Origin: Bacteroidaceae bacterium
GTDB lineage: Bacteria > Bacteroidota > Bacteroidia > Bacteroidales > Bacteroidaceae
Assembly: GCA_017424485.1 (NCBI GenBank)
Contig: JAFOYZ010000104.1
Span: 1-45,312, forward strand
Direction: 5' to 3'
DNA length: 45,312 nt
In this document: positions 8,392-36,721 of the stretch, in pieces
Position numbering within the stretch: position 1 is the stretch's first letter
Layout of the letters: the number at the start of each line of letters is the position of its first letter
Notes under the pieces: model-generated
Told to the model about the DNA's origin: nothing
Seen by the model: only the letters and a program-made list of their open reading frames with translations
The model's database searches: none
Translations under genes and position numbers: made by a program

Positions 8392-8426
8392 TGTCAACTG
8401 ACAACGATCAACAGACAACAATCATT
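8392..8426. repeat. Degenerate heptanucleotide array (NNNCAAC x5) in the ilvN-ilvC spacer
   Basis: Reads tgtcaac|tgacaac|gatcaac|agacaac|aatcatt. Confidence 0.7.
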
Positions 8427-19109: not shown

Positions 19110-19144
19110 AATTGTCAATTGTCAATTATCCATTGTCAATTATT
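19110..19144. repeat. Heptanucleotide array (AATTGTC-type x5) spanning the rluB stop codon
   Basis: Reads aattgtc|aattgtc|aattatc|cattgtc|aattatt. Confidence 0.7.
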
Positions 19145-20552
19145 CATACGCTCCCATTCGTAGCATATTGACCTCCTTTTCGGTAAGGAAACGCCAATCG
19201 CCACGACGAAGATTCTTTTTGGTTAGTCCAGCAAACTGTACGCGATCAAGACGCAACACACGGTAGCCCACAGCCTCGAACATGCGGCGTACGATACGAT
19301 TGCGACCGCTGTGGATCTCTACGCCTACGAGTGACTTATCTGTATCTGAGGTGTAACTAATCTCGTCTGCATGGATTTCACCATCCTCTAACTGTACGCC
19401 ACTAGCCAGTTGGTCCATATCAGCTGCAGTTAGGTTCTTATCGAGACGTACATGGTAGATCTTCTTCTTGAGGAAGCGGGGATGTGTAAGCTTTGAGGCC
19501 AACTCACCATCATTGGTGAGTAGAAGCACACCCGTAGTATTGCGGTCAAGACGACCTACTGGATAGATACGCTCCTTGCAAGCACCCTTCACGAGGTCCA
19601 TCACTGTCTTGCGATCCTGAGGATCCTCAACGGTGGTCACATAATCCTTAGGTTTATTGAGCAGGATATAAATCTTGCGCTCTATACTAATTGTTTGGTC
19701 GTGGAAACGTACTTCATCGCCACGCTTCACTTTGGTTCCGAGCTCGGTTACCACCTGTCCGTTAACAGTCACTACACCAGCAGTAATAAAGTCATCTGCC
19801 TCACGACGCGAACATACACCTGCGTTAGCAAGGTATTTGTTCAGACGAATCGGCTCGTTAGGATCTTTCAACTCCTCACGATACTGTATCTGCTTTTTCT
19901 TACTATACTTATTGTCACCGAAAGCACCCTTCTTCTTGAAGCCTCCTGCTGCGGGACGCTGACCATAGCCACCTTCACGATTGAATCGGGGACGCTGAGC
20001 ATAACCACCCTCATTGCCCTCGCGGTTGTAACGTGGACGGAACGTATTCTCAGCATCAGAGTTCCAAGAGTTGCCTGTTTCAGGACGATCATGGGAAGGA
20101 CGGCTATAGGGTTTGTTCACCGGGCGATAGCTATTGCCCTCACCATCATTGAATCGACGACGGCTATAATCGCTGTTATAGCTATTGCTACGACTATAGG
20201 TACGTTCTCCATTATATGAACGTTCCGAGTTGAATGAACGCTCGCTACCATATTGGCGCTCACCATCGAAGCTACGCTCACGATTAAAACGGGGACGGTT
20301 GCCATCAAAGTTCGGATTGAACGAACTACGTTGAGGGCGCTCTACTCTTGCATAACGAGGTGCACCACCCTCCTCGCGATTGAAACGGGGGCGCTGTGGA
20401 CGTGTAGTACCATCGGTATTTCTCACAAAACGCTGTCTAGGCGCACGGTGACCATCGTTGTTCCAACTGTTTTCGCGGTTGTACGAACTGCGTTCGTTAC
20501 CTCCATTCTCTGATTCGAATCCCTCGAATCGATTTACATTGTCTGTACTCAT
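19140..20552 (-). CDS. rluB: RluB/RsuA-family 23S rRNA pseudouridine synthase with a ~230-aa Arg/Asn/Ser/Gly-rich N-terminal extension
   Basis: The C-terminal half has an S4 domain (IRLNKYLANAGVCSRREAD) and a catalytic GRLDRNTTG motif. The N-terminal half repeats RPRFNRE four times. Confidence 0.85.
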   Translation of the reverse strand: MSTDNVNRFEGFESENGGNERSSYNRENSWNNDGHRAPRQRFVRNTDGTTRPQRPRFNREEGGAPRYARVERPQRSSFNPNFDGNRPRFNRERSFDGERQYGSERSFNSERSYNGERTYSRSNSYNSDYSRRRFNDGEGNSYRPVNKPYSRPSHDRPETGNSWNSDAENTFRPRYNREGNEGGYAQRPRFNREGGYGQRPAAGGFKKKGAFGDNKYSKKKQIQYREELKDPNEPIRLNKYLANAGVCSRREADDFITAGVVTVNGQVVTELGTKVKRGDEVRFHDQTISIERKIYILLNKPKDYVTTVEDPQDRKTVMDLVKGACKERIYPVGRLDRNTTGVLLLTNDGELASKLTHPRFLKKKIYHVRLDKNLTAADMDQLASGVQLEDGEIHADEISYTSDTDKSLVGVEIHSGRNRIVRRMFEAVGYRVLRLDRVQFAGLTKKNLRRGDWRFLTEKEVNMLRMGAYE

Positions 20553-20667: not shown

Positions 20668-20695
20668 TCATCTTTCAACTTTCATCTTTCAACTT
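20668..20695. repeat. Heptanucleotide array TCAWCTT x4
   Basis: Reads tcatctt|tcaactt|tcatctt|tcaactt, immediately 3' of the purB stop. Confidence 0.65.
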
Positions 20696-28235: not shown

Positions 28236-28319
28236 GTTGAGAGTTGAAGGAGAATTCTGAATTCTGAATTGTCATTTGTCATTTGTCAATTGTCATTTGT
28301 CAATTGTCATTTGTCAATT
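28236..28319. repeat. 84-bp spacer made entirely of 12 drifting heptanucleotide units
   Basis: Reads gttgaga|gttgaag|gagaatt|ctgaatt|ctgaatt|gtcattt|gtcattt|gtcaatt|gtcattt|gtcaatt|gtcattt|gtcaatt. It fills the M23-DUF1599 gap and includes two of the three nt of the M23 stop codon. Confidence 0.85.
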
Positions 28320-29354: not shown

Positions 29355-29424
29355 CTAAACTCTAAACCCTAAACACTACACTCTAAGCACTACACTCTAA
29401 ACACTACACTCTAAACTCTAAACC
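29355..29424. repeat. Heptanucleotide array CTAMRCN x10
   Basis: Reads ctaaact|ctaaacc|ctaaaca|ctacact|ctaagca|ctacact|ctaaaca|ctacact|ctaaact|ctaaacc. It can also be read as a 14-bp unit repeated three times. Confidence 0.85.
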
Positions 29425-30304: not shown

Positions 30305-31684
30305 TTAATTCTTCAGAATCTTTGTTATCTCAGTGGCGTAATTCTCAATATCACCAGCCCCAAGCGTCACGAGCACCTCCAATTCATCTTTCTTAGCCTC
30401 CACAGTGGCGAGCACATCACACTTGTTTATCATCTGTTTCTGCACATGCTCTGCCAGATTATCGTATATGAGTTGGCTGGTCACACCGGGGATAGGCAGT
30501 TCACGAGCAGGATATATATCGGTAAGGATTACCTCATCAAAGAGCGAGAGACTCTCGGCAAACTCACGATAGAAGTCCTGTGTACGCGAATAGAGGTGAG
30601 GCTGGAATATGGCAGTCACCTTACGTCCTGCATACAGTTCACGTATCGAGAGAGCGCTCTGCCAGATTTCGGCCGGATGATGGGCATAGTCGCTGAGATA
30701 CACCTTCGCCTCACTCTTCAGTTTGAAGTCGAAGCGGCGTTCCACACCGCGGAAGCTCTCCATACCTATACGCAACTCCTCATCAGCAACTCCCGCCAAC
30801 CGAGCCATCGCCATAGCCGCCACTCCATTATCGATATTGACACTCAAGGGCACACCAAGATGAATATCCTTGACCACACCTTCGGGGTGAACGAAGTCAA
30901 TCACAATCTCGCCCCCTCCAATACGGATGTTATCGGCATGATAGTCGCCCTTGGCACGAGAATAGGTATATACACGCACTCCCGGCTGCACCTGTGGCTT
31001 TATCTCCAGCCCCTCGTGAATGATGAGCACACCGTCCGGGCGGATGAGCGAGGTATATTTCTCGAAACTCTCCCAGTAAGCCTCTGGCGTACCATAGATA
31101 TCCAGGTGATCTGGATCTGTAGAGGTGATTACCGACATGTAGGGACGCAGTTGATGGAACGAGCGGTCAAACTCATCGGCCTCGATCACCACATAGTCAC
31201 TCTTGTCAGTCAGCAGCAGATTGGTACCATAGTTCTGCGATATGCCACCCAGAAAAGCCGTTGTCCCCACATGAGAGCCATAGATAAGGTGGGCTGCCAT
31301 GGTCGATGTAGTCGTCTTTCCATGCGTACCCGCCACACACAGACCTCGGCGGCTGCGAGTGATGGTACCCAACAATTGGGCACGTTTCTGTATCTCGAAG
31401 CCCTGTTCGCGAAACCACGTGAGTTCACTATGATCTTGTGGTACCGCAGGCGTATACACCACCAAGGTATGCGCCTTGTCTTTGCAGCTATCGGGAATCA
31501 TCGCACAGTCATCCTCATAATGGATAGCCGCACCTTCTGCATTGAGGCGCTCGGTGAGTTCACTGGCCGTACGGTCATACCCCGCCACCACCTTGCCTAA
31601 TGACAAGAAGTAACGCACCAAAGCACTCATACCGATGCCACCAGCACCAATGAAATATACAGACTTTATCGAATCAATCTCCAT
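30305..31684 (-). CDS. murC: UDP-N-acetylmuramate--L-alanine ligase
   Basis: 459 aa with GAGGIGMSAL and GTHGKTTTSTM motifs and Mur ligase middle and C-terminal domains. Confidence 0.92.
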   Translation of the reverse strand: MEIDSIKSVYFIGAGGIGMSALVRYFLSLGKVVAGYDRTASELTERLNAEGAAIHYEDDCAMIPDSCKDKAHTLVVYTPAVPQDHSELTWFREQGFEIQKRAQLLGTITRSRRGLCVAGTHGKTTTSTMAAHLIYGSHVGTTAFLGGISQNYGTNLLLTDKSDYVVIEADEFDRSFHQLRPYMSVITSTDPDHLDIYGTPEAYWESFEKYTSLIRPDGVLIIHEGLEIKPQVQPGVRVYTYSRAKGDYHADNIRIGGGEIVIDFVHPEGVVKDIHLGVPLSVNIDNGVAAMAMARLAGVADEELRIGMESFRGVERRFDFKLKSEAKVYLSDYAHHPAEIWQSALSIRELYAGRKVTAIFQPHLYSRTQDFYREFAESLSLFDEVILTDIYPARELPIPGVTSQLIYDNLAEHVQKQMINKCDVLATVEAKKDELEVLVTLGAGDIENYATEITKILKN

Positions 31685-31730
31685 GTTTCTTTCTCCTTAT
31701 TATACCTTATATATACCTTTCTCAATTTAG

Positions 31731-31758
31731 CTGCGAAGATACATAAAATAATTGACAA
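31731..31758 (-). promoter_or_regulatory. 28-bp promoter module, copy 1 (upstream of murC)
   Basis: The minus strand TTGTCAATTATTTTATGTATCTTCGCAG is identical to 39393-39420. Its -7 box TATCTTCG is at 31734-31741, 49 nt upstream of the murC ATG. Confidence 0.6.
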
Positions 31759-31803
31759 GAGGCTGTGTCGTAAAATTTATTTACGACACAGCCTCTTCTT
31801 TTT
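31757..31803. terminator. Strong hairpin terminator between the OMP pseudogene and the murC promoter
   Basis: AAGAGGCTGTGTCGTAAA-ATTTA-TTTACGACACAGCCTCTT (18-bp perfect stem). It is followed by CTTTTT on the plus strand and ATTATTTTA on the minus strand. Confidence 0.55.
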
Positions 31804-31932
31804 ATCACTCCAAAAGGCACAAACTCGTTATTCTAAAGTACCATTTACGCTTACCGATTATTTTAGCAAATCCAAGAAGTGATTAACGAAGTCAAGGTAT
31901 AACATGAAACAATCGTAATTAGTGCGGCAGTC

Positions 31933-32759
31933 TTATAATCCTATTCCCACAGACAAGCCGAAGGAGCACAAATGCCTCTTTCCATCCATATACGAGAGAG
32001 AGTTGACTCCACCAGGATACTTCAGATAGTCTCCATCTTTATAATAGCCATTCATGATAAACTTGCCATAAGCACGCACATTAAGGTCTACAGTTCCCAA
32101 CGGGAAGCAATACCCTACAGCCCCATGTCACCTGAGTTTCAAGCGTACCTTGATTATCAGTCACGTCATATTCTCCAAATCCATGATTGGGCAAATCTTT
32201 CAGCTCCACATTATACTTGGGATAGTAGCCCGACAATGTCACCTGGCCGGAGACCGTGTTATATTCGCACTTCATTGGAATAACGAGTCCCGGTCCCACA
32301 TTCACAAATACATTGCCAACCTTGTATTGGTAGAAGACCGGGATTTCTATAAGGTTGATGGTCTGCATCTCCTTGCATCACGGGCATGGGCCTTATAGCT
32401 CAGGTTGTCACCTTCATCATCTACAGCGTTACACTTGTAGAAAAACTCTTCAGATTCCAAGGTGCGTTTCTCCTGTCCATAGTGAATGCCTAGTCCGACA
32501 CCTCCATTCCAGTTTATAGGAAATAGATTTCTATACCAGCACCATACTTCGTTCCTCCATACATCGGTATCTCAGCACCAGATGTAGCATGTACACTCTC
32601 TATAGAAGCAGCTATCATGAAATGCCTCTCCCTACTTCTTTCCCTCTTCTGTACAGGTGCTACACCGCCTTTCGACACATAAAGGCTTTCGTAATCGTAT
32701 AGTGCACAGGTCTCGGCGGCCGCCAATAAACAAAGGCATGCCGTTAGTATATATTTCAT
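31933..32759 (-). pseudogene. Outer-membrane beta-barrel (porin-family, OMP_b-brl-like) gene disrupted by at least 3 frameshifts
   Basis: The signal peptide MKYILTACLCLLAAAETCA starts at 32759. The reading frame must switch near 32514, near 32375 and near 32120 to give one alternating-strand beta-barrel protein ending FGLSVGIGL-stop at 31933. At least two of the shifts lie in short C/G runs. Confidence 0.6.
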
Positions 32760-32798
32760 TATTCTCATTCTATTACGCCGACGAAAACCGTTTAGCGT

Positions 32799-32819
32799 GG
32801 AACGAGGAACGAGGAACCG
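32799..32819. repeat. Heptanucleotide array GGAACGA x3
   Basis: Reads ggaacga|ggaacga|ggaaccg. Its reverse complement (CGTTCCTCGTTCC) also occurs at 29279-29290 and 29478-29488. Confidence 0.6.
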
Positions 32820-32909
32820 AAGGTCGCTGGCGCAAGGGAAAAGCAACGAGGAGCGATGAAATGGGCATTTTTTAAGGATTCGCGCACGCGCACCTTGCAT
32901 TTTTGGAGA

Positions 32910-32970
32910 AAAAAAGTTTTATTTTTGGCCTGGCAGAGTGCAGCGAAGTGCGCTTCGCTGCAACGTTGAC
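32910..32970. repeat. Left terminal inverted repeat (61 bp)
   Basis: AAAAAAGTTTTATTTTTGGCCTGGCAGAGTGCAGCGAAGTGCGCTTCGCTGCAACGTTGAC. It contains the hairpin GCAGCGAAG-TGCG-CTTCGCTGC. Confidence 0.9.
32920..32927 (+). promoter_or_regulatory. Inward-facing -7 box TATTTTTG inside the left TIR
   Basis: Exact TAnnTTTG match. The mirror copy lies at 35139-35146 on the minus strand in the right TIR. Confidence 0.35.
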
Positions 32971-33129
32971 GGCAGCGCGGAACATTAGCGCTGATTGCGA
33001 CGGCAACGCGGCATGATAGCGTTGCTTGTGACGACGGGAGATTTATCCCCTCAAAGGAACGCGCTTTAGCACCATAAGATTTGTCGGCACCAAGGAGAAG
33101 TCAAGTGCAGCATTGCAACTTGTTTTTTT
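32935..33129 (+). ncRNA. Hypothetical ~195-nt small RNA (TIR promoter to terminator)
   Basis: Bounded by the -7 box at 32920-32927 and the terminator at 33102-33129. The region is GC-rich with local hairpins (e.g. GCAACGC-9 nt-GCGTTGC at about 33003-33027) and has no ORF longer than 18 codons. Confidence 0.25.
33102..33129 (+). terminator. Intrinsic terminator inside the cassette
   Basis: CAAGTGCA-GCAT-TGCA(A)CTTG followed by TTTTTTT. Confidence 0.5.
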
Positions 33130-33214
33130 GCTTTTGAGAAGTTCTTTTTCCTAATTCTCAGGTTCAGGGAATACGCATTATAAAAAACATTCAAGTTTTC
33201 CGTTGCTTTTTCCC

Positions 33215-33233
33215 TCACGCGAATTTCGCGTGA
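33215..33233. promoter_or_regulatory. 19-bp perfect palindrome, operator-like
   Basis: TCACGCGAA-T-TTCGCGTGA. Confidence 0.4.
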
Positions 33234-33325
33234 AATATTGACTCATAAGTTGAGAGATAAGTAAGGTTTCATTCGAGAAAAATGAGAATGCGTTTTTCCC
33301 TATTCACAGGTTTCACTTATCGCCA

Positions 33326-33402
33326 CCCCTGCAGGGGTAATAGTTTATCCCTGCAAGGGTAATATTTTCTCCCTGCAAGGGTAGCGTGTTATCCCTGCAG
33401 GG
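33326..33402. repeat. Four iteron-like direct repeats with 22-bp phasing
   Basis: CCCTGCA(A/G)GGG cores start at 33327, 33349, 33371 and 33393. Units 1 and 4 are perfect palindromes (CCCCTGCAGGGG, CCCTGCAGGG). Spacers begin with TA and are T-rich. An AT-rich stretch follows at about 33403-33480. Confidence 0.8.
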
Positions 33403-33525
33403 ATAACAACAAATAGAACCATAGAATAATGGAAATCTATTGTTCCATATTAGTCAAACGAACCATCCTTTTTATTTTCAAGCGTGCTGATTGACTAGGT
33501 ATTGACTTTGGGGGTATTAATGTTG

Positions 33526-33533
33526 TAACTTCG
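33526..33533 (+). promoter_or_regulatory. -7 box TAACTTCG for the VapE-like gene
   Basis: TAACTTCGCAAC lies 149 nt upstream of the ATG at 33683. Confidence 0.4.
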
Positions 33534-33644
33534 CAACGAAAACAGAGTTTTCAACGATAACGAAGACGATGACGAAAACTTTTTTCTGTAGCGTATCAAA
33601 TGCAGAATAAATGGGGTTGATGGCACAGTACCTTTGTACTGTCA

Positions 33645-33659
33645 GACGATAACGAAAAC
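33645..33659. repeat. Inner inverted repeat, left copy (GACGATAACGAAAAC)
   Basis: Exact reverse complement of 35084-35098, 24 nt upstream of the ORF start. Confidence 0.8.
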
Positions 33660-33682
33660 TTATATATTATATAATAGAAGCA

Positions 33683-35029
33683 ATGAAGAAGTTATTTACA
33701 AAAGCATTCGAGTGGCTGCGAAGAAGAGTAACAGCGCTTAAGGACACGCGAAGTGTGTACGCTAACGCTAACGTTAACGATGACAACAACGATTGTGATA
33801 ACGTTAACTGTTCCGTGAAAAGTGAAGCACTTCAAGGGAGCTCCCTCAACTCTCAACCTTCATCCATTAGCAACACCAATCACGACCCGCTGCTGCTACG
33901 CATCGAGGAGTTCATCGGGGAGCATTATCGGGTGCGCTTCAATGCGCTATCGCAGCAACACGAGATCAGCAGACGTGATGCCGAGCGATGGATGCCTGTA
34001 AGCAGCATGCAATGTAACCGCTTGGTGATGGAGCTGAACCGTGCGGGTATCATCCTGGCAAAACCGTACCTAGTAAAAACGGTGATAGAGGGGGGCACAC
34101 TGGCCGAGGAGTATCACCCCGTGCGAAGCTACTTGACGACGTTGCCCGAATGGGACGGCGTGGAGCGTATAGAAGCACTCTTCCGCCGGGTGACCGATGA
34201 TGAGCAACTGCTCCGCTGGTTGCGCAAGTGGTTCATCGCCATGGTGGCACAGGCACTGAACCGTATGGGAGCGTATGGCAACAGCGTGTGCCCTATACTC
34301 ATCAGTAGCGTACAAGGATGGGGCAAGAGCCAGTTTGCCAAACTGCTGGTGCCGCCACAGCTGAGAGGCGCCTTTACCGACACCTTCAATCTGCAGCAGG
34401 AGGACGGCTGTCTGCGTCGCATGACAGCCTACATGCTCGTCAATGTGGATGAGATTGACCGGTTCGGCGACCGCCGAATGTCGACCTTCAAGAATATGGT
34501 GCAACTGGCTACGGTATCGATGAAGCGTGCCTATCACACACAGATGGAGGAGAAGGAACGCATGGCCTCGTTCATCGCCACGAGCAACCGACGCCATCTG
34601 CTCAATGACGAGAGTGGTAGCCGCCGCTTCATCTGTGTGGAACTAGCACATGCCATTGATGTGACTACTCCTTTGGACCATGCCCAACTCTATGCCGAGG
34701 CATTGGCTGCGATCGAAAGCGGTGAACGCTGCTGGTTCACCGAAGAGGAGACGCGCGAACTGGAAGCACACAACAATTCCTTTGCCACCAGCCAAGGGGT
34801 ATGGGCATTAATGAAGCGCAGCCTCACACTGCGCGACATTCCTGAAGGGAACGAGGAGCGACAGACGCAACTATACTCGGCCAACGAGGTGTACGATTAT
34901 CTGCACCAACAGTCGCCCTCGGCCATGAGCGGCATCGAGCGCAGCACCTTCGGGTACTTCCTCACCGAGTTTGGGGCACAACAGGTGAGGGTGAGGAACA
35001 AGAGAGTTTATGGCGTTAGCTTAGGCTAA
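33683..35029 (+). CDS. VirE/VapE-family P-loop NTPase (D5-helicase-like) with a DUF3874-like C-terminus
   Basis: 448 aa with Walker A SSVQGWGKS (nt 34313-34330), Walker B MLVNVDEID and a downstream ATSN..SGSRRF motif typical of VapE. The first ~67 aa are low complexity and are encoded by repeat words. Confidence 0.8.
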   Translation: MKKLFTKAFEWLRRRVTALKDTRSVYANANVNDDNNDCDNVNCSVKSEALQGSSLNSQPSSISNTNHDPLLLRIEEFIGEHYRVRFNALSQQHEISRRDAERWMPVSSMQCNRLVMELNRAGIILAKPYLVKTVIEGGTLAEEYHPVRSYLTTLPEWDGVERIEALFRRVTDDEQLLRWLRKWFIAMVAQALNRMGAYGNSVCPILISSVQGWGKSQFAKLLVPPQLRGAFTDTFNLQQEDGCLRRMTAYMLVNVDEIDRFGDRRMSTFKNMVQLATVSMKRAYHTQMEEKERMASFIATSNRRHLLNDESGSRRFICVELAHAIDVTTPLDHAQLYAEALAAIESGERCWFTEEETRELEAHNNSFATSQGVWALMKRSLTLRDIPEGNEERQTQLYSANEVYDYLHQQSPSAMSGIERSTFGYFLTEFGAQQVRVRNKRVYGVSLG

Positions 35030-35083
35030 CGCCAACGATGACGATAACGTTGACGTTAACTAAGCATCCGACAGACAGTCTTC

Positions 35084-35098
35084 GTTTTCGTTATCGTC
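35084..35098. repeat. Inner inverted repeat, right copy
   Basis: GTTTTCGTTATCGTC, overlapping the inner edge of the right TIR. Confidence 0.8.
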
Positions 35099-35156
35099 AA
35101 CGTTGCAGCGAAGCATGCTTCGCTGCACTCTGCCAGGTCAAAAATAAAACTTTTTT
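35096..35156. repeat. Right terminal inverted repeat (61 bp)
   Basis: Reverse complement of 32910-32970 with 4 mismatches. Its internal 22-bp perfect palindrome is GCAGCGAAGCATGCTTCGCTGC. Confidence 0.9.
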
Positions 35157-35157
35157 A

Positions 35158-35199
35158 CTCGGTGAAAAGGCCTATTTTGTGCCTTTTCACCGAGTTTTT
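35158..35199 (+). terminator. Strong intrinsic terminator immediately outside the right TIR
   Basis: CTCGGTGAAAAGGC-9 nt-GCCTTTTCACCGAG (14-bp perfect stem) followed by TTTTT. Confidence 0.7.
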
Positions 35200-35236
35200 C
35201 TAACTTGATGCCTCTTCTAAATCTATATTTCATAGC

Positions 35237-35276
35237 AATCACGCTGGGCGCTACAGATGCAGCGCCCAGCGTGATT
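35237..35276. other. 15-bp perfect-stem hairpin 45 nt downstream of the ftsW stop
   Basis: AATCACGCTGGGCGC-10 nt-GCGCCCAGCGTGATT with no adjacent T-run. It may be an RNA 3'-end stabiliser or a recombination site; function unknown. Confidence 0.35.
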
Positions 35277-35320
35277 ATGCAAACCAGAATAAGTAATTAC
35301 GTGAACAGCACTTTGCGTAT

Positions 35321-36571
35321 CTATGCATTCACAATCGATGAATCTCTCAAGATTTCAGGGATATCATCCTCGGCCTGTTCGGCTGCAGCAGCTTGGGCAT
35401 CGCGAGCCATCTTCTCGGTATGGTAGCTGACGCTGAGTATCATGCCGATATAGCAGCAATTGATGATGGTAGAGGTTCCTCCTCGGCTTATCAGCGGAAG
35501 GGGCTGACCGGTAACAGGGAAGAGGCCTACAGCAACCATCATATTGAGCATGGCCTGTGCCACAAGCATCAGCGCACAACCCATGACCAGGAACGCAGGG
35601 AAATACCCTCGACACCTCTGCGCTATCTTGGCCGCTCGTATGAGCAAGATAATATAGAGCATCACCACAAAGGCACCTCCTAGCAGGCCTGTCTCTTCGA
35701 TGATGATGGCAAAGATAAAGTCGGAATAGGCCTGAGGCAGATAGTCGCGCTCCACAGAGTTGCCCGGACCGCGACCTATGATATTGCTCGATGCAATGGC
35801 CATCGCGGCATGCGACTCCTGATAGTTCTCGTCGGTAATCTTATACTGTGCGGCGGGGATAGCATCAGAATCACCAAAACGCTGGATACGTGCCTGCCAG
35901 GTGACGAGTCGATTAAGGCCCTGAATCTTGCCTAATGTCTTACTAGGTACGAAGAGCAACACAGAAAGGAAGAGTGCAGCAGCGGCACATAACGCGAAGA
36001 ATAGTTTGAGTAACTGACGCATGGGTACACGACCTACATACATCATCAGACATACCACGCCGAAGAGCAATACAGCGGTAGAGAGGTTTTCAGGTGCGAT
36101 GAGTCCACACACGATAATGGTCATCCAGAGTATCCACTTCATGGCATTGGGTGTAGCACCATCCTCTGTCTGCATACGTGATAGGATAACTGCCGTACCC
36201 ATGACCACGCCCACCTTGGCAAACTCAGAAGGCTGTATGGTAAAGCCTGCAACCCTCATCCATCTGGCGGCATCATTGACATCGACTCCTTTTAGCAAGA
36301 CCCATATCAACATGCATATAGATGCCGGAACAAGCACAAGCGGTATGGTCTTATAGAAACGGTAAGGGATAAGATGAGCTACATAGACCACGCCCAAACC
36401 CAAGAACAAGTAGGTACTATGCTGGCGGATAGGCCACCAGTAATTACCACCACTCTTATAGGTAAGCATACTAGCCGCACTGAACACCTCCACTATAGAG
36501 ATGAGTAGCAGCAACATGAATACCACCCACACGACTTTGTCGCCACGAAATATTCGATTCAGAAAATCCAT
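35321..36571 (-). CDS. ftsW: SEDS-family peptidoglycan glycosyltransferase FtsW
   Basis: 416 aa with about 10 TM helices and PLPLISRGGTS. It lies between murD and the position where murG would be. Confidence 0.88.
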   Translation of the reverse strand: MDFLNRIFRGDKVVWVVFMLLLLISIVEVFSAASMLTYKSGGNYWWPIRQHSTYLFLGLGVVYVAHLIPYRFYKTIPLVLVPASICMLIWVLLKGVDVNDAARWMRVAGFTIQPSEFAKVGVVMGTAVILSRMQTEDGATPNAMKWILWMTIIVCGLIAPENLSTAVLLFGVVCLMMYVGRVPMRQLLKLFFALCAAAALFLSVLLFVPSKTLGKIQGLNRLVTWQARIQRFGDSDAIPAAQYKITDENYQESHAAMAIASSNIIGRGPGNSVERDYLPQAYSDFIFAIIIEETGLLGGAFVVMLYIILLIRAAKIAQRCRGYFPAFLVMGCALMLVAQAMLNMMVAVGLFPVTGQPLPLISRGGTSTIINCCYIGMILSVSYHTEKMARDAQAAAAEQAEDDIPEILRDSSIVNA

Positions 36572-36605: not shown

Positions 36606-36721
36606 GGAGTTCAGGAGTCAGGAGTGACGCTTCGCTTAGGAGTGCAGACAATAGCGAAGCACTTGGCTATCGCGTAACTGCGGTATTGTCTGAACTCCTG
36701 AACTTCTGACTTCTGTACTCC
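36606..36721. repeat. GGAGT/ACTCC-word palindromic element, copy B (murD-ftsW spacer)
   Basis: The plus strand begins GGAGTTCAGGAGTCAGGAGT..AGGAGTGCAGACAATAGCGAAGC and ends ..CTGCGGTATTGTCTGAACTCCTGAACTTCTGACTTCTGTACTCC. The arms pair over ~40 bp, and several pairs are G-U only in the plus-strand RNA. Confidence 0.8.

Follow-up and report, generated by a model that had tools for sequence, protein, structure and literature searches.

The 45,312-nucleotide stretch analysed here (the window) comprises contig JAFOYZ010000104.1 of the Bacteroidaceae bacterium assembly GCA_017424485.1, and carries an array of four palindromic units upstream of a gene for a VapE-like helicase. In an initial annotation, the units had been interpreted as theta-replicon iterons read by the product of the downstream gene, with operators of a dimeric protein as the alternative. 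The former interpretation was contradicted by our analysis and the latter was favoured. It was found that the units were dyad-symmetric, that their core sequence was uncoupled from the helicase, and that the array travelled with another gene, which encodes an HU-HIG protein with a C-terminal winged helix-turn-helix (HU-wHTH). With moderate confidence, the array is regarded as four operator-type sites for a dimeric sequence-specific protein, most likely HU-wHTH and not the VapE-like helicase.

Architecture and symmetry of the array

The array (33326–33408, without strand assignment) was delimited by sequence reading, repeat finding and alignment to the arrays of relatives. It reads CCCCTGCAGGGG-N10-TCCCTGCAAGGG-N10-TCCCTGCAAGGG-N10-TCCCTGCAGGGA, with CCCCTGCAGGGG at 33326–33337, TCCCTGCAAGGG at 33348–33359 and again at 33370–33381, and TCCCTGCAGGGA at 33392–33403, the start-to-start distance being exactly 22 bp. 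Tandem Repeats Finder (TRF) reported a period of 22, with 3.6 copies and a score of 95. The 22/22 spacing was confirmed by the repeat search, which also showed that unit 4 is a perfect 22-bp palindrome (33387–33408, halves TGTTATCCCTG and CAGGGATAACA); in units 2 and 3, the dyad symmetry is broken at one position, by the same base in each. When CCCTGCARGGG was searched with at most one mismatch, these four sites were the only ones in the window (1.07 expected), and none of 100 shuffles equalled this count. Four phased 10-mers were found in 0 of 100 Markov-1 simulated sequences. Reading, TRF and the repeat search thus confirmed the four palindromic units at exact 22-bp phase that had initially been described. 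The CCCTGCA(A/G)GGG cores described with them were present at the four sites, but the 11-mer did not hold as the unit, which is a dyad of 12–18 bp (TTATCCCTGCAGGGATAA), a length suited to an operator.

The symmetry was examined in 45 distinct 18-mers from 12 arrays. Symmetry-related positions were complementary in 83.5% of cases, compared with 72.3% in shuffles, and none of 500 shuffles reached the observed value. Changes on both sides of the dyad were found in 65 cells, compared with 31.5 expected, and included pair 8/11 (CG, UA); pair 9/10 was invariant. At the outer flanking positions every pyrimidine/purine combination was seen, without a pairing rule. Because the symmetry extends to the two innermost pairs, which are unable to pair in a hairpin, these results point to the units being sites for a dimer on duplex DNA. 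Their dyad symmetry likewise indicates dimer sites rather than the direct repeats typical of iteron plasmids.

It was also considered that the palindromes might act at the RNA level: as hairpins within the 5′ leader of the HU transcript, or within a read-through transcript, they would control stability or translation. The array would indeed lie inside the HU leader of intact cassettes, each unit can form a small stem-loop, and one unit was scored as terminator-like. However, the stems comprise only 3–5 bp, and the four units share one sequence, which is needless for hairpins or cruciform stems. The pattern of symmetry, which includes the innermost pairs and leaves the outer flanks free, does not fit RNA pairing either, and arrays are retained in cassettes that have lost both the HU gene and its promoter. 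In the Rfam search, only a tRNA reached the gathering score in the window, with one chance-level match in the array region. An RNA element was accordingly given very little probability.

The cores contain CTGCAG, CCGCGG or CGTACG, and the idea of a restriction site or methylation sensor was also examined. It was dropped, as CTGCAG was not avoided in the window (19 observed, 23 expected).

Coupling of the array to the HU-wHTH gene and not to the helicase

Hundreds of relatives of the window's helicase were found in gut metagenomes. The close relatives in genomes were twelve proteins with 59–80% identity, all from Bacteroidaceae metagenome-assembled genomes (MAGs) of ruminant hindgut, and distant relatives (∼35% identity) were found in cultured Bacteroides finegoldii, Phocaeicola massiliensis and Parabacteroides distasonis. 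In five metagenome contigs, the window protein was flanked by the same genes as here; the one full-length copy retrieved had an identical array. At every locus with an intact upstream region, 22-bp phased repeats were found at the corresponding place, and the 4 × 22 bp layout itself was seen there in >20 loci, among them loci of cultured B. finegoldii and P. massiliensis. Four dyad units were present in HU-containing and close VapE cassettes, and the window's four units aligned in register with those of its relatives; the arrays of loci L098, L095 and L096 were longer or of another type.

The core varied between cassettes and was the same within one cassette. In the window's group, the units fit TCnnnGCnnnGA, in which the variable triplet is ACC, TCC or ATC, and CCT in the window. 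Most relatives carried (T/C)CACCGCGGTG(A/G), whereas the cores of L007, L004 and L110 were CACTGCGGTG, TCTCCGCGGAGA and TCATCGCGATGA, respectively, and a second group had TGATGG..CCATCA. In Bacteroides, the cores were CTTATCA-N6-TGATAAG, AACCAC-N4-GTGGTT or TTCCACT..AGTGGAA. Conservation of the array in homologous cassettes therefore held for the 4 × 22 bp layout, but the core sequence was uncoupled from the VapE-like protein. Further CCCTGCARGG arrays beside VapE-like genes, which could be expected from the initial annotation, were not found: IMG/VR gave none, and none of the 58 matches in JGI metagenomes adjoined a VapE or HU homologue. The only other match with a similar four-unit array (L066, 14–95) lay at a contig end, where the context was uninformative.

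At 14 loci, a gene of ∼207 codons was found on the opposite strand, starting 25–110 bp (up to 314 bp) left of the array. Its product was identified as an HU-HIG protein (PF18291), with Pfam E-values of 1e-19 to 1e-27. The AlphaFold model, with a predicted local distance difference test score (pLDDT) of 82.5, exhibited an HU fold and a C-terminal winged HTH (H-H-H plus wing, residues 145–203) with the recognition helix at residues 175–187, and the best fold match was the HU-HIG structure 4FMR. An exact -7 box of the HU strand (TAnnTTTG) lay 20–29 bp right of the array at 13 of the 14 HU-containing loci, compared with none of the seven HU-less loci. When the HU protein was used as the query and the contigs of four diverse relatives were read, the same order was observed: a 4 × 22 bp array ∼60 nt from the HU ATG, then the -7 box, then a promoter similar to P1, the promoter of the window's helicase gene. 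The array stood beside the HU-wHTH gene whatever the divergent partner was, be it VapE, DUF3987 (L113, L115) or small open reading frames (L104); L110 had no recognisable partner, and B. finegoldii provided a case in which a full BT4734-type primase-helicase takes this place. Judged from these arrangements, the array most likely belongs to the control region of the HU-wHTH gene and not to that of the helicase. The HU transcript would start just outside the array, which would place the dyads at approximately +10 to +95 of the HU leader, and P1 lies ∼100 bp beyond the array in intact cassettes.

In ∼15 HU-wHTH/array pairs, the recognition helix and the array class were in broad agreement: SESTARRR occurred with ACC, STARRH with ATC, and a separate HU group with TGATGG..CCATCA. 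The following mechanism is proposed on this basis. In an intact cassette, the HU-wHTH and helicase-type genes would be transcribed divergently from back-to-back promoters. Four HU-wHTH dimers, separated by two helical turns, would occupy the same face of the DNA in a cooperative manner, and the HU fold would bend it, giving a nucleoprotein complex where the HU transcription unit begins. The complex would shut off the HU gene by autoregulation and would probably modulate the neighbouring P1. The specificity would reside in the variable triplet of TCnnnGCnnnGA, diversified between cassettes.

The VapE-like SF3-type helicase gene of the window (33683–35029, plus strand) encodes 448 aa, with a disordered linker at residues 28–65 and a C-terminal DUF3874 that is winged-helix-like. 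The protein was 91% identical to P0001, and the differences lay almost entirely in the disordered, low-complexity linker. When the segments were compared separately, the N-domain (66–150) was 98% identical to P0001, the NTPase (151–370) 98% identical to P0003, and the C-terminal DUF3874 (371–448) 99% identical to P0007; R97, L114 and N365 were the only structured residues unique to the window protein. The cassettes of these three proteins (L022, L026 and L089, respectively) all have CACCGCGGTG arrays. Conversely, the same array core was shared by helicases only ∼60% identical. Near-identical helicase domains with different cores, together with ∼60% identical helicases with the same core, indicate that the helicase is not the reader of the array.

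These comparisons bear directly on the initial proposal that the units are iterons bound by the downstream VapE-like protein as their cognate initiator. The layout does resemble a theta replicon. In addition, the Rep protein of Staphylococcus aureus pathogenicity islands (SaPIs) binds iterons through a C-terminal winged helix, which sets iteron specificity (PMC9371898), and the C-terminus of the window protein is winged-helix-like. However, a C-terminus and an N-domain nearly identical to those of the window protein come from CACCGCGGTG cassettes, the core is shared by much more diverged proteins, the array also stands beside HU genes without a VapE partner, and the units are dyads rather than direct repeats. 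Moreover, SaPI-type iterons are hexamers 3′ of the gene, and such hexamers are present here at 35028–35104. It is thus highly improbable that the helicase is the cognate initiator of the array.

Several points weigh against HU-wHTH as the reader of the array. The helix-to-core map was not one-to-one: L005 and L009 differ in their helices and share ACC, and L104 and L113 have different helices, both with TCC. The HU transcription start was placed by motif only. Neither an HU-HIG gene nor a remnant of one was found in the window, including the filler at 32972–33325, and an HU gene with a CCT-type array was not found in the collections scanned (IMG/VR, JGI metagenomes). Burroughs et al. (2017, PMC5499826) have argued that a role as sequence-specific factors is unlikely for HU-HIG proteins. 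Finally, HU-wHTH was repeatedly paired with helicase or primase genes next to an AT-rich neighbour, an arrangement that would also suit a replication module.

The last point leads to the main rival, a lambda-type origin with the same binder, with which the comparative data are also compatible. Here, HU-wHTH would be the initiator, four dimers on four dyad iterons would bend the DNA, the AT-rich stretch would melt, and the neighbouring helicase (VapE, DUF3987 or primase-helicase) would be loaded; in the window, the initiator would act in trans. Four dyads about two turns apart beside a stretch of 73% A+T fit this model. The covariation of the array with the HU gene and not with the helicase is what is expected of an HU initiator, most divergent partners are of helicase or primase families, a SaPI initiator-helicase is the nearest solved relative of the helicase, and the cores are kept in HU-less copies. 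On the other hand, the cassettes were chromosomal, flanked by housekeeping genes, present in several copies per genome and without a recombinase. No VapE relatives were found in 2.9 million viral contigs (IMG/VR), and small ‘phage’ or virome records with relatives were set aside as linear, unverified fragments of bacterial chromosomal DNA. HU plus array also occurred without a helicase partner, and the AT-rich stretch could be explained by promoter boxes at fixed offsets. DnaA boxes were represented by one 1-mismatch match near the array, and their window-wide count (44, compared with 42.6 expected) was that of chance. No Pfam match to the BT4734/VirE_N primase domain was obtained in the window protein, and PHROG matches aligned only to the helicase part of primase-helicases. 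A lambda-type origin was hence considered unlikely.

A broader and still more speculative reading was formulated, in which HU-wHTH proteins and their private 4 × 22 bp arrays would constitute a large family of orthogonal initiator/origin (or silencer/target) pairs in Bacteroidales. Each HU-wHTH would assemble a complex similar to that of lambda O on its own array and recruit the neighbouring SF3-type helicase, whichever that is, and small chromosomal cassettes bounded by inverted repeats would be able to amplify or remodel DNA locally, e.g. when challenged by phages or mobile elements. On this reading, the array of the window would be an origin or target with a rare specificity (CCT), driven in trans. 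This was regarded as a doubtful proposition.

Returning to the operator reading, the HU gene has been lost from the window's cassette, which leaves the array an orphan. Seven HU-less cassettes were seen, in which the -7 box was decayed. In four independent HU-less cassettes, the cores were 96% identical, compared with 55% for the spacers and 66% for the flank, implying selection on the dyads themselves, presumably via a protein in trans. In one MAG, an HU-containing and an HU-less cassette had the same core, and a third cassette had another core. The orphan array of the window would thus be open to occupation only in trans, by an HU-wHTH paralogue whose gene lies at another place in the genome.

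Alternatively, the array could be a non-functional relic, left without a binder after deletion of the HU gene and not yet decayed. Both the HU gene and the exact -7 box are missing in the window, units 2 and 3 carry the same symmetry-breaking base, and no cognate HU was found in the collections scanned. Nevertheless, the four cores are intact, with the fourth being part of a perfect 22-bp palindrome, and other HU-less cassettes keep their cores while the -7 box and spacers decay. The identity of the array in the second copy of the locus also speaks against decay, although it says little at the population level. A relic was judged rather improbable.

Promoter region, helicase gene and cassette

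The initial annotation had placed an AT-rich segment with an imperfect inverted repeat after the array, followed by a promoter and the VapE-like gene, and all of these elements were recovered. The 77 bp next to the array (33404–33480) have 72.7% A+T and are in the top 1.2% of 77-bp windows, and the inverted repeat was found as AACAAATAGAAC / AATCTATTGTT. The AT-rich segment as a whole (33404–33491, minus strand) is at the position of the HU-gene promoter boxes in intact cassettes, and is a decayed counterpart of this leftward promoter region that has lost the exact -7 box TAnnTTTG. This box is part of the general Bacteroides promoter consensus. The rightward promoter P1 of the VapE-like gene (33492–33524, plus strand) is of Bacteroides type, with TTGAC at 33492–33496 and TAACTTCG at 33517–33524. 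It is followed by a long 5′ leader (33525–33682, plus strand), which holds RACGWW hexamer repeats at 33553–33576 and 33645–33656 and a second -7-like box, TACCTTTG, at 33629–33636. P1 was 80–95% identical to the promoters of relatives, compared with only 35–44% for the array and the next 95 bp, indicating that the array/HU-promoter segment was exchanged as a module.

In the open reading frame at 33683–35029, Pfam matched VapE-like_dom with 110.8 bits, DUF3874 with 35.4 and DUF5906 with 32.6, all above the gathering score. The closest solved relative was the SaPI Rep/PriRep helicase, PDB 7PDS (sequence E = 1.8e-13), which was also the best fold match. Because the structure predicted for the helicase was of poor quality in the NTPase core (pLDDT 63), only its best match and the secondary structure of the C-terminus were used. 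PADLOC defence-system models gave no match for either of the two proteins searched. The helicase genes were mosaic, the N-domain, NTPase and C-terminus of the window protein each having a different nearest relative, which indicates frequent recombination among cassette copies.

RACGWW hexamers were concentrated in the cassette, with 76/kb in the 3′ flank and 37/kb in the 5′ leader, compared with 4.2/kb in the window overall. Two opposed sets (35028–35104, without strand assignment) lie immediately 3′ of the helicase gene in an arrangement similar to a SaPI origin: after the stop codon, five forward and four reverse copies flank GCATCCGACAG, and loci whose C-terminal domains are nearly identical have this arrangement in common. 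In SaPI origins, iterons of five or six nucleotides directly follow rep and flank an AT-rich centre (PMC9371898), whereas the centre of the sets found here was not AT-rich. As a candidate, the hexamer sets would be a more plausible place for a helicase-specific origin than the 22-bp array. RACGWW was also observed at 33764–33781, where the same DNA repeat encodes the hypervariable linker of the protein (ANANVNDDNNDCDNVN).

The VapE cassette spans 32906–35160 and is bounded by a 66-nt inverted repeat, the arms of which are 92% complementary. The left end block (32906–32971, plus strand) holds a hairpin at 32939–32962, and the right end block (35095–35160, minus strand) forms the other arm. Each end block is made up of opposed hexamers, CCATCCGRCAG, a hairpin with a covarying stem, and then CTGCCAGGCCAAAAATAAAAC with a T-run. 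Almost every related locus had the block beyond the 3′ ends of both the helicase and the HU gene. Since the neighbouring genes differ beyond it, the end block marks the ends of the cassette, and it could represent either a common terminator module or terminal repeats that delimit a mobile unit. The left block had also been considered as a promoter with a small RNA; this idea was dropped, because the block recurs inverted 3′ of the helicase gene and 3′ of HU genes. Between the left block and the array, non-coding filler (32972–33325, without strand assignment) occupies the position of the HU gene in intact cassettes. It includes a 31-nt tandem repeat and a hairpin with a T-run at ∼33100–33130. 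A 30-nt direct repeat in the filler (33135–33164 and 33283–33312; 77% identical, 148 bp apart) suggests a local duplication or small insertion.

The gene content of the window is that of ordinary chromosome and includes ilv/leu genes, asnS, purB, dnaG, folE and tpiA. The array locus lies within a minus-strand cell-division and cell-wall cluster (mraY, murD, ftsW, a 3.6-kb insert, murC, ftsQ), and the insert consists of a frame-broken outer-membrane-protein-like gene and the VapE cassette. This gene (31933–32765, minus strand) resembles those of lipoproteins or outer-membrane proteins, is spread over at least four frames (83, 37, 95 and 55 aa) and had no Pfam match; either it is a pseudogene or the assembly has indel errors. 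In the cluster (30305–36571), murG was missing between these genes and was not found anywhere in the window, and ftsA/ftsZ did not follow ftsQ. Assemblies of close relatives (contig starts of L022–L025 and L086) repeatedly broke inside or beside the array or promoter region, which fits several near-identical cassette copies per genome. Short 7- or 14-nt tandem repeats (TTGTCAT, CTAAACA, AATTGTC and others) were observed in many intergenic regions, mostly just before start codons (8394–8424, 19110–19147, 20668–20695, 28269–28319, 29355–29424 and 36689–36719); this looks like a genome-wide habit of the lineage.

Other 22-bp phased arrays were observed upstream of VapE or BT4734-family genes in Parabacteroides distasonis (L098, 866–1010) and Phocaeicola massiliensis (L095, 1200–1430; L096, 1215–1320). 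One of these arrays has six GTTTCYC-TAG-GRGAAAC dyads beside a DUF6078 gene, with no HU gene, and the others have at least ten 22-bp units with ACGTACGT/GCATGC cores. In L002 (1–200) and L097 (780–1320), a transposase-like gene was found exactly at the position of the array, with the helicase promoter and gene remaining. Unrelated 22-bp phased arrays with CCTTGCAGGG-like dyads were seen in the metagenome contigs L062 (2029–2130) and L053 (3424–3490), the former abutting the 3′ end of a short HU-like gene.

Significance and comparison with known systems

Phased operator arrays and iterons are themselves well-known kinds of sites. In the literature on DUF3874, BT4734 and HU-HIG, no description of the arrays or of the HU-wHTH/array/helicase pairing was found, and the pairing of an HU-HIG wHTH gene with a private 4 × 22 bp array appears to be undescribed. 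Few DNA-binding families of gut Bacteroidales are as expanded, or diverge as fast, as the HU-HIG proteins. By linking the wHTH subclade to helicase-type partners and to private arrays that are hypervariable and follow a simple code, the triplet of TCnnnGCnnnGA, the results give a testable handle on their function. They also suggest a natural set of orthogonal protein/operator pairs, possibly useful for Bacteroides engineering. In addition, an attractive but wrong origin call beside a VapE-like gene was corrected, with the 3′ hexamer sets being the more plausible origin site.

Autoregulatory operator or centromere arrays that are bound cooperatively by small dimers upstream of their own genes include TubR-tubC, ParR-parC of pSK41 (four 20-bp repeats) and Arc/CopG-type operators. 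The present array resembles them in having several identical short sites at helical phase, at or just after what would be the regulator's own promoter in intact cassettes, and in the predicted dimer binding, a specificity that would coevolve with the protein and the predicted winged-HTH reader. It differs in that an HU fold is fused to a wHTH in the predicted reader, the sites would be in the transcribed leader, the partner is a helicase rather than a partition NTPase, and the regulator gene is absent in the window.

In the origin of phage lambda, four dyad iterons are bound by dimers of the O protein and are followed by an AT-rich region, all inside the O gene. The shared features are the four dyads about two turns apart and the AT-rich neighbour, to which a predicted initiator distinct from the helicase and bending that would build a nucleoprotein complex may be added. 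Whereas this site lies within a gene of a phage that replicates autonomously, the array is part of a two-gene cassette on the chromosome that showed no sign of autonomy, and promoter boxes lie in the AT-rich stretch beside it. Direct repeats bound by Rep monomers characterize iteron plasmids (pPS10 and R6K, both with 22-bp iterons, F, RK2), which also have DnaA boxes and a Rep gene cognate to the repeats; an inverted repeat is found there only as the rep operator. The 22-bp period, about four copies and an AT-rich neighbour are common to both. The array differs in its dyad-symmetric units, in a downstream gene that is not its cognate, and in DnaA boxes, which occurred in the window at the level of chance.

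The window's helicase is similar to SaPI Rep/PriRep (PMC9371898; PDB 7PDS) in being an SF3-type NTPase with a C-terminal winged helix. Unlike SaPI iterons, the 22-bp dyads precede the gene and show no covariation with the C-terminal domain, and the SaPI pattern is better fitted by the hexamers at 35028–35104. The HU-HIG family has been described as expanded and fast-diverging, with gene linkage almost entirely unconserved (Burroughs et al. 2017, PMC5499826). The divergent gene of intact cassettes is a member of the wHTH subclade of this clade (Pfam PF18291; PDB 4FMR). In contrast to the published picture, each gene examined here was accompanied by its own 4 × 22 bp dyad array, and many were paired with helicase genes.

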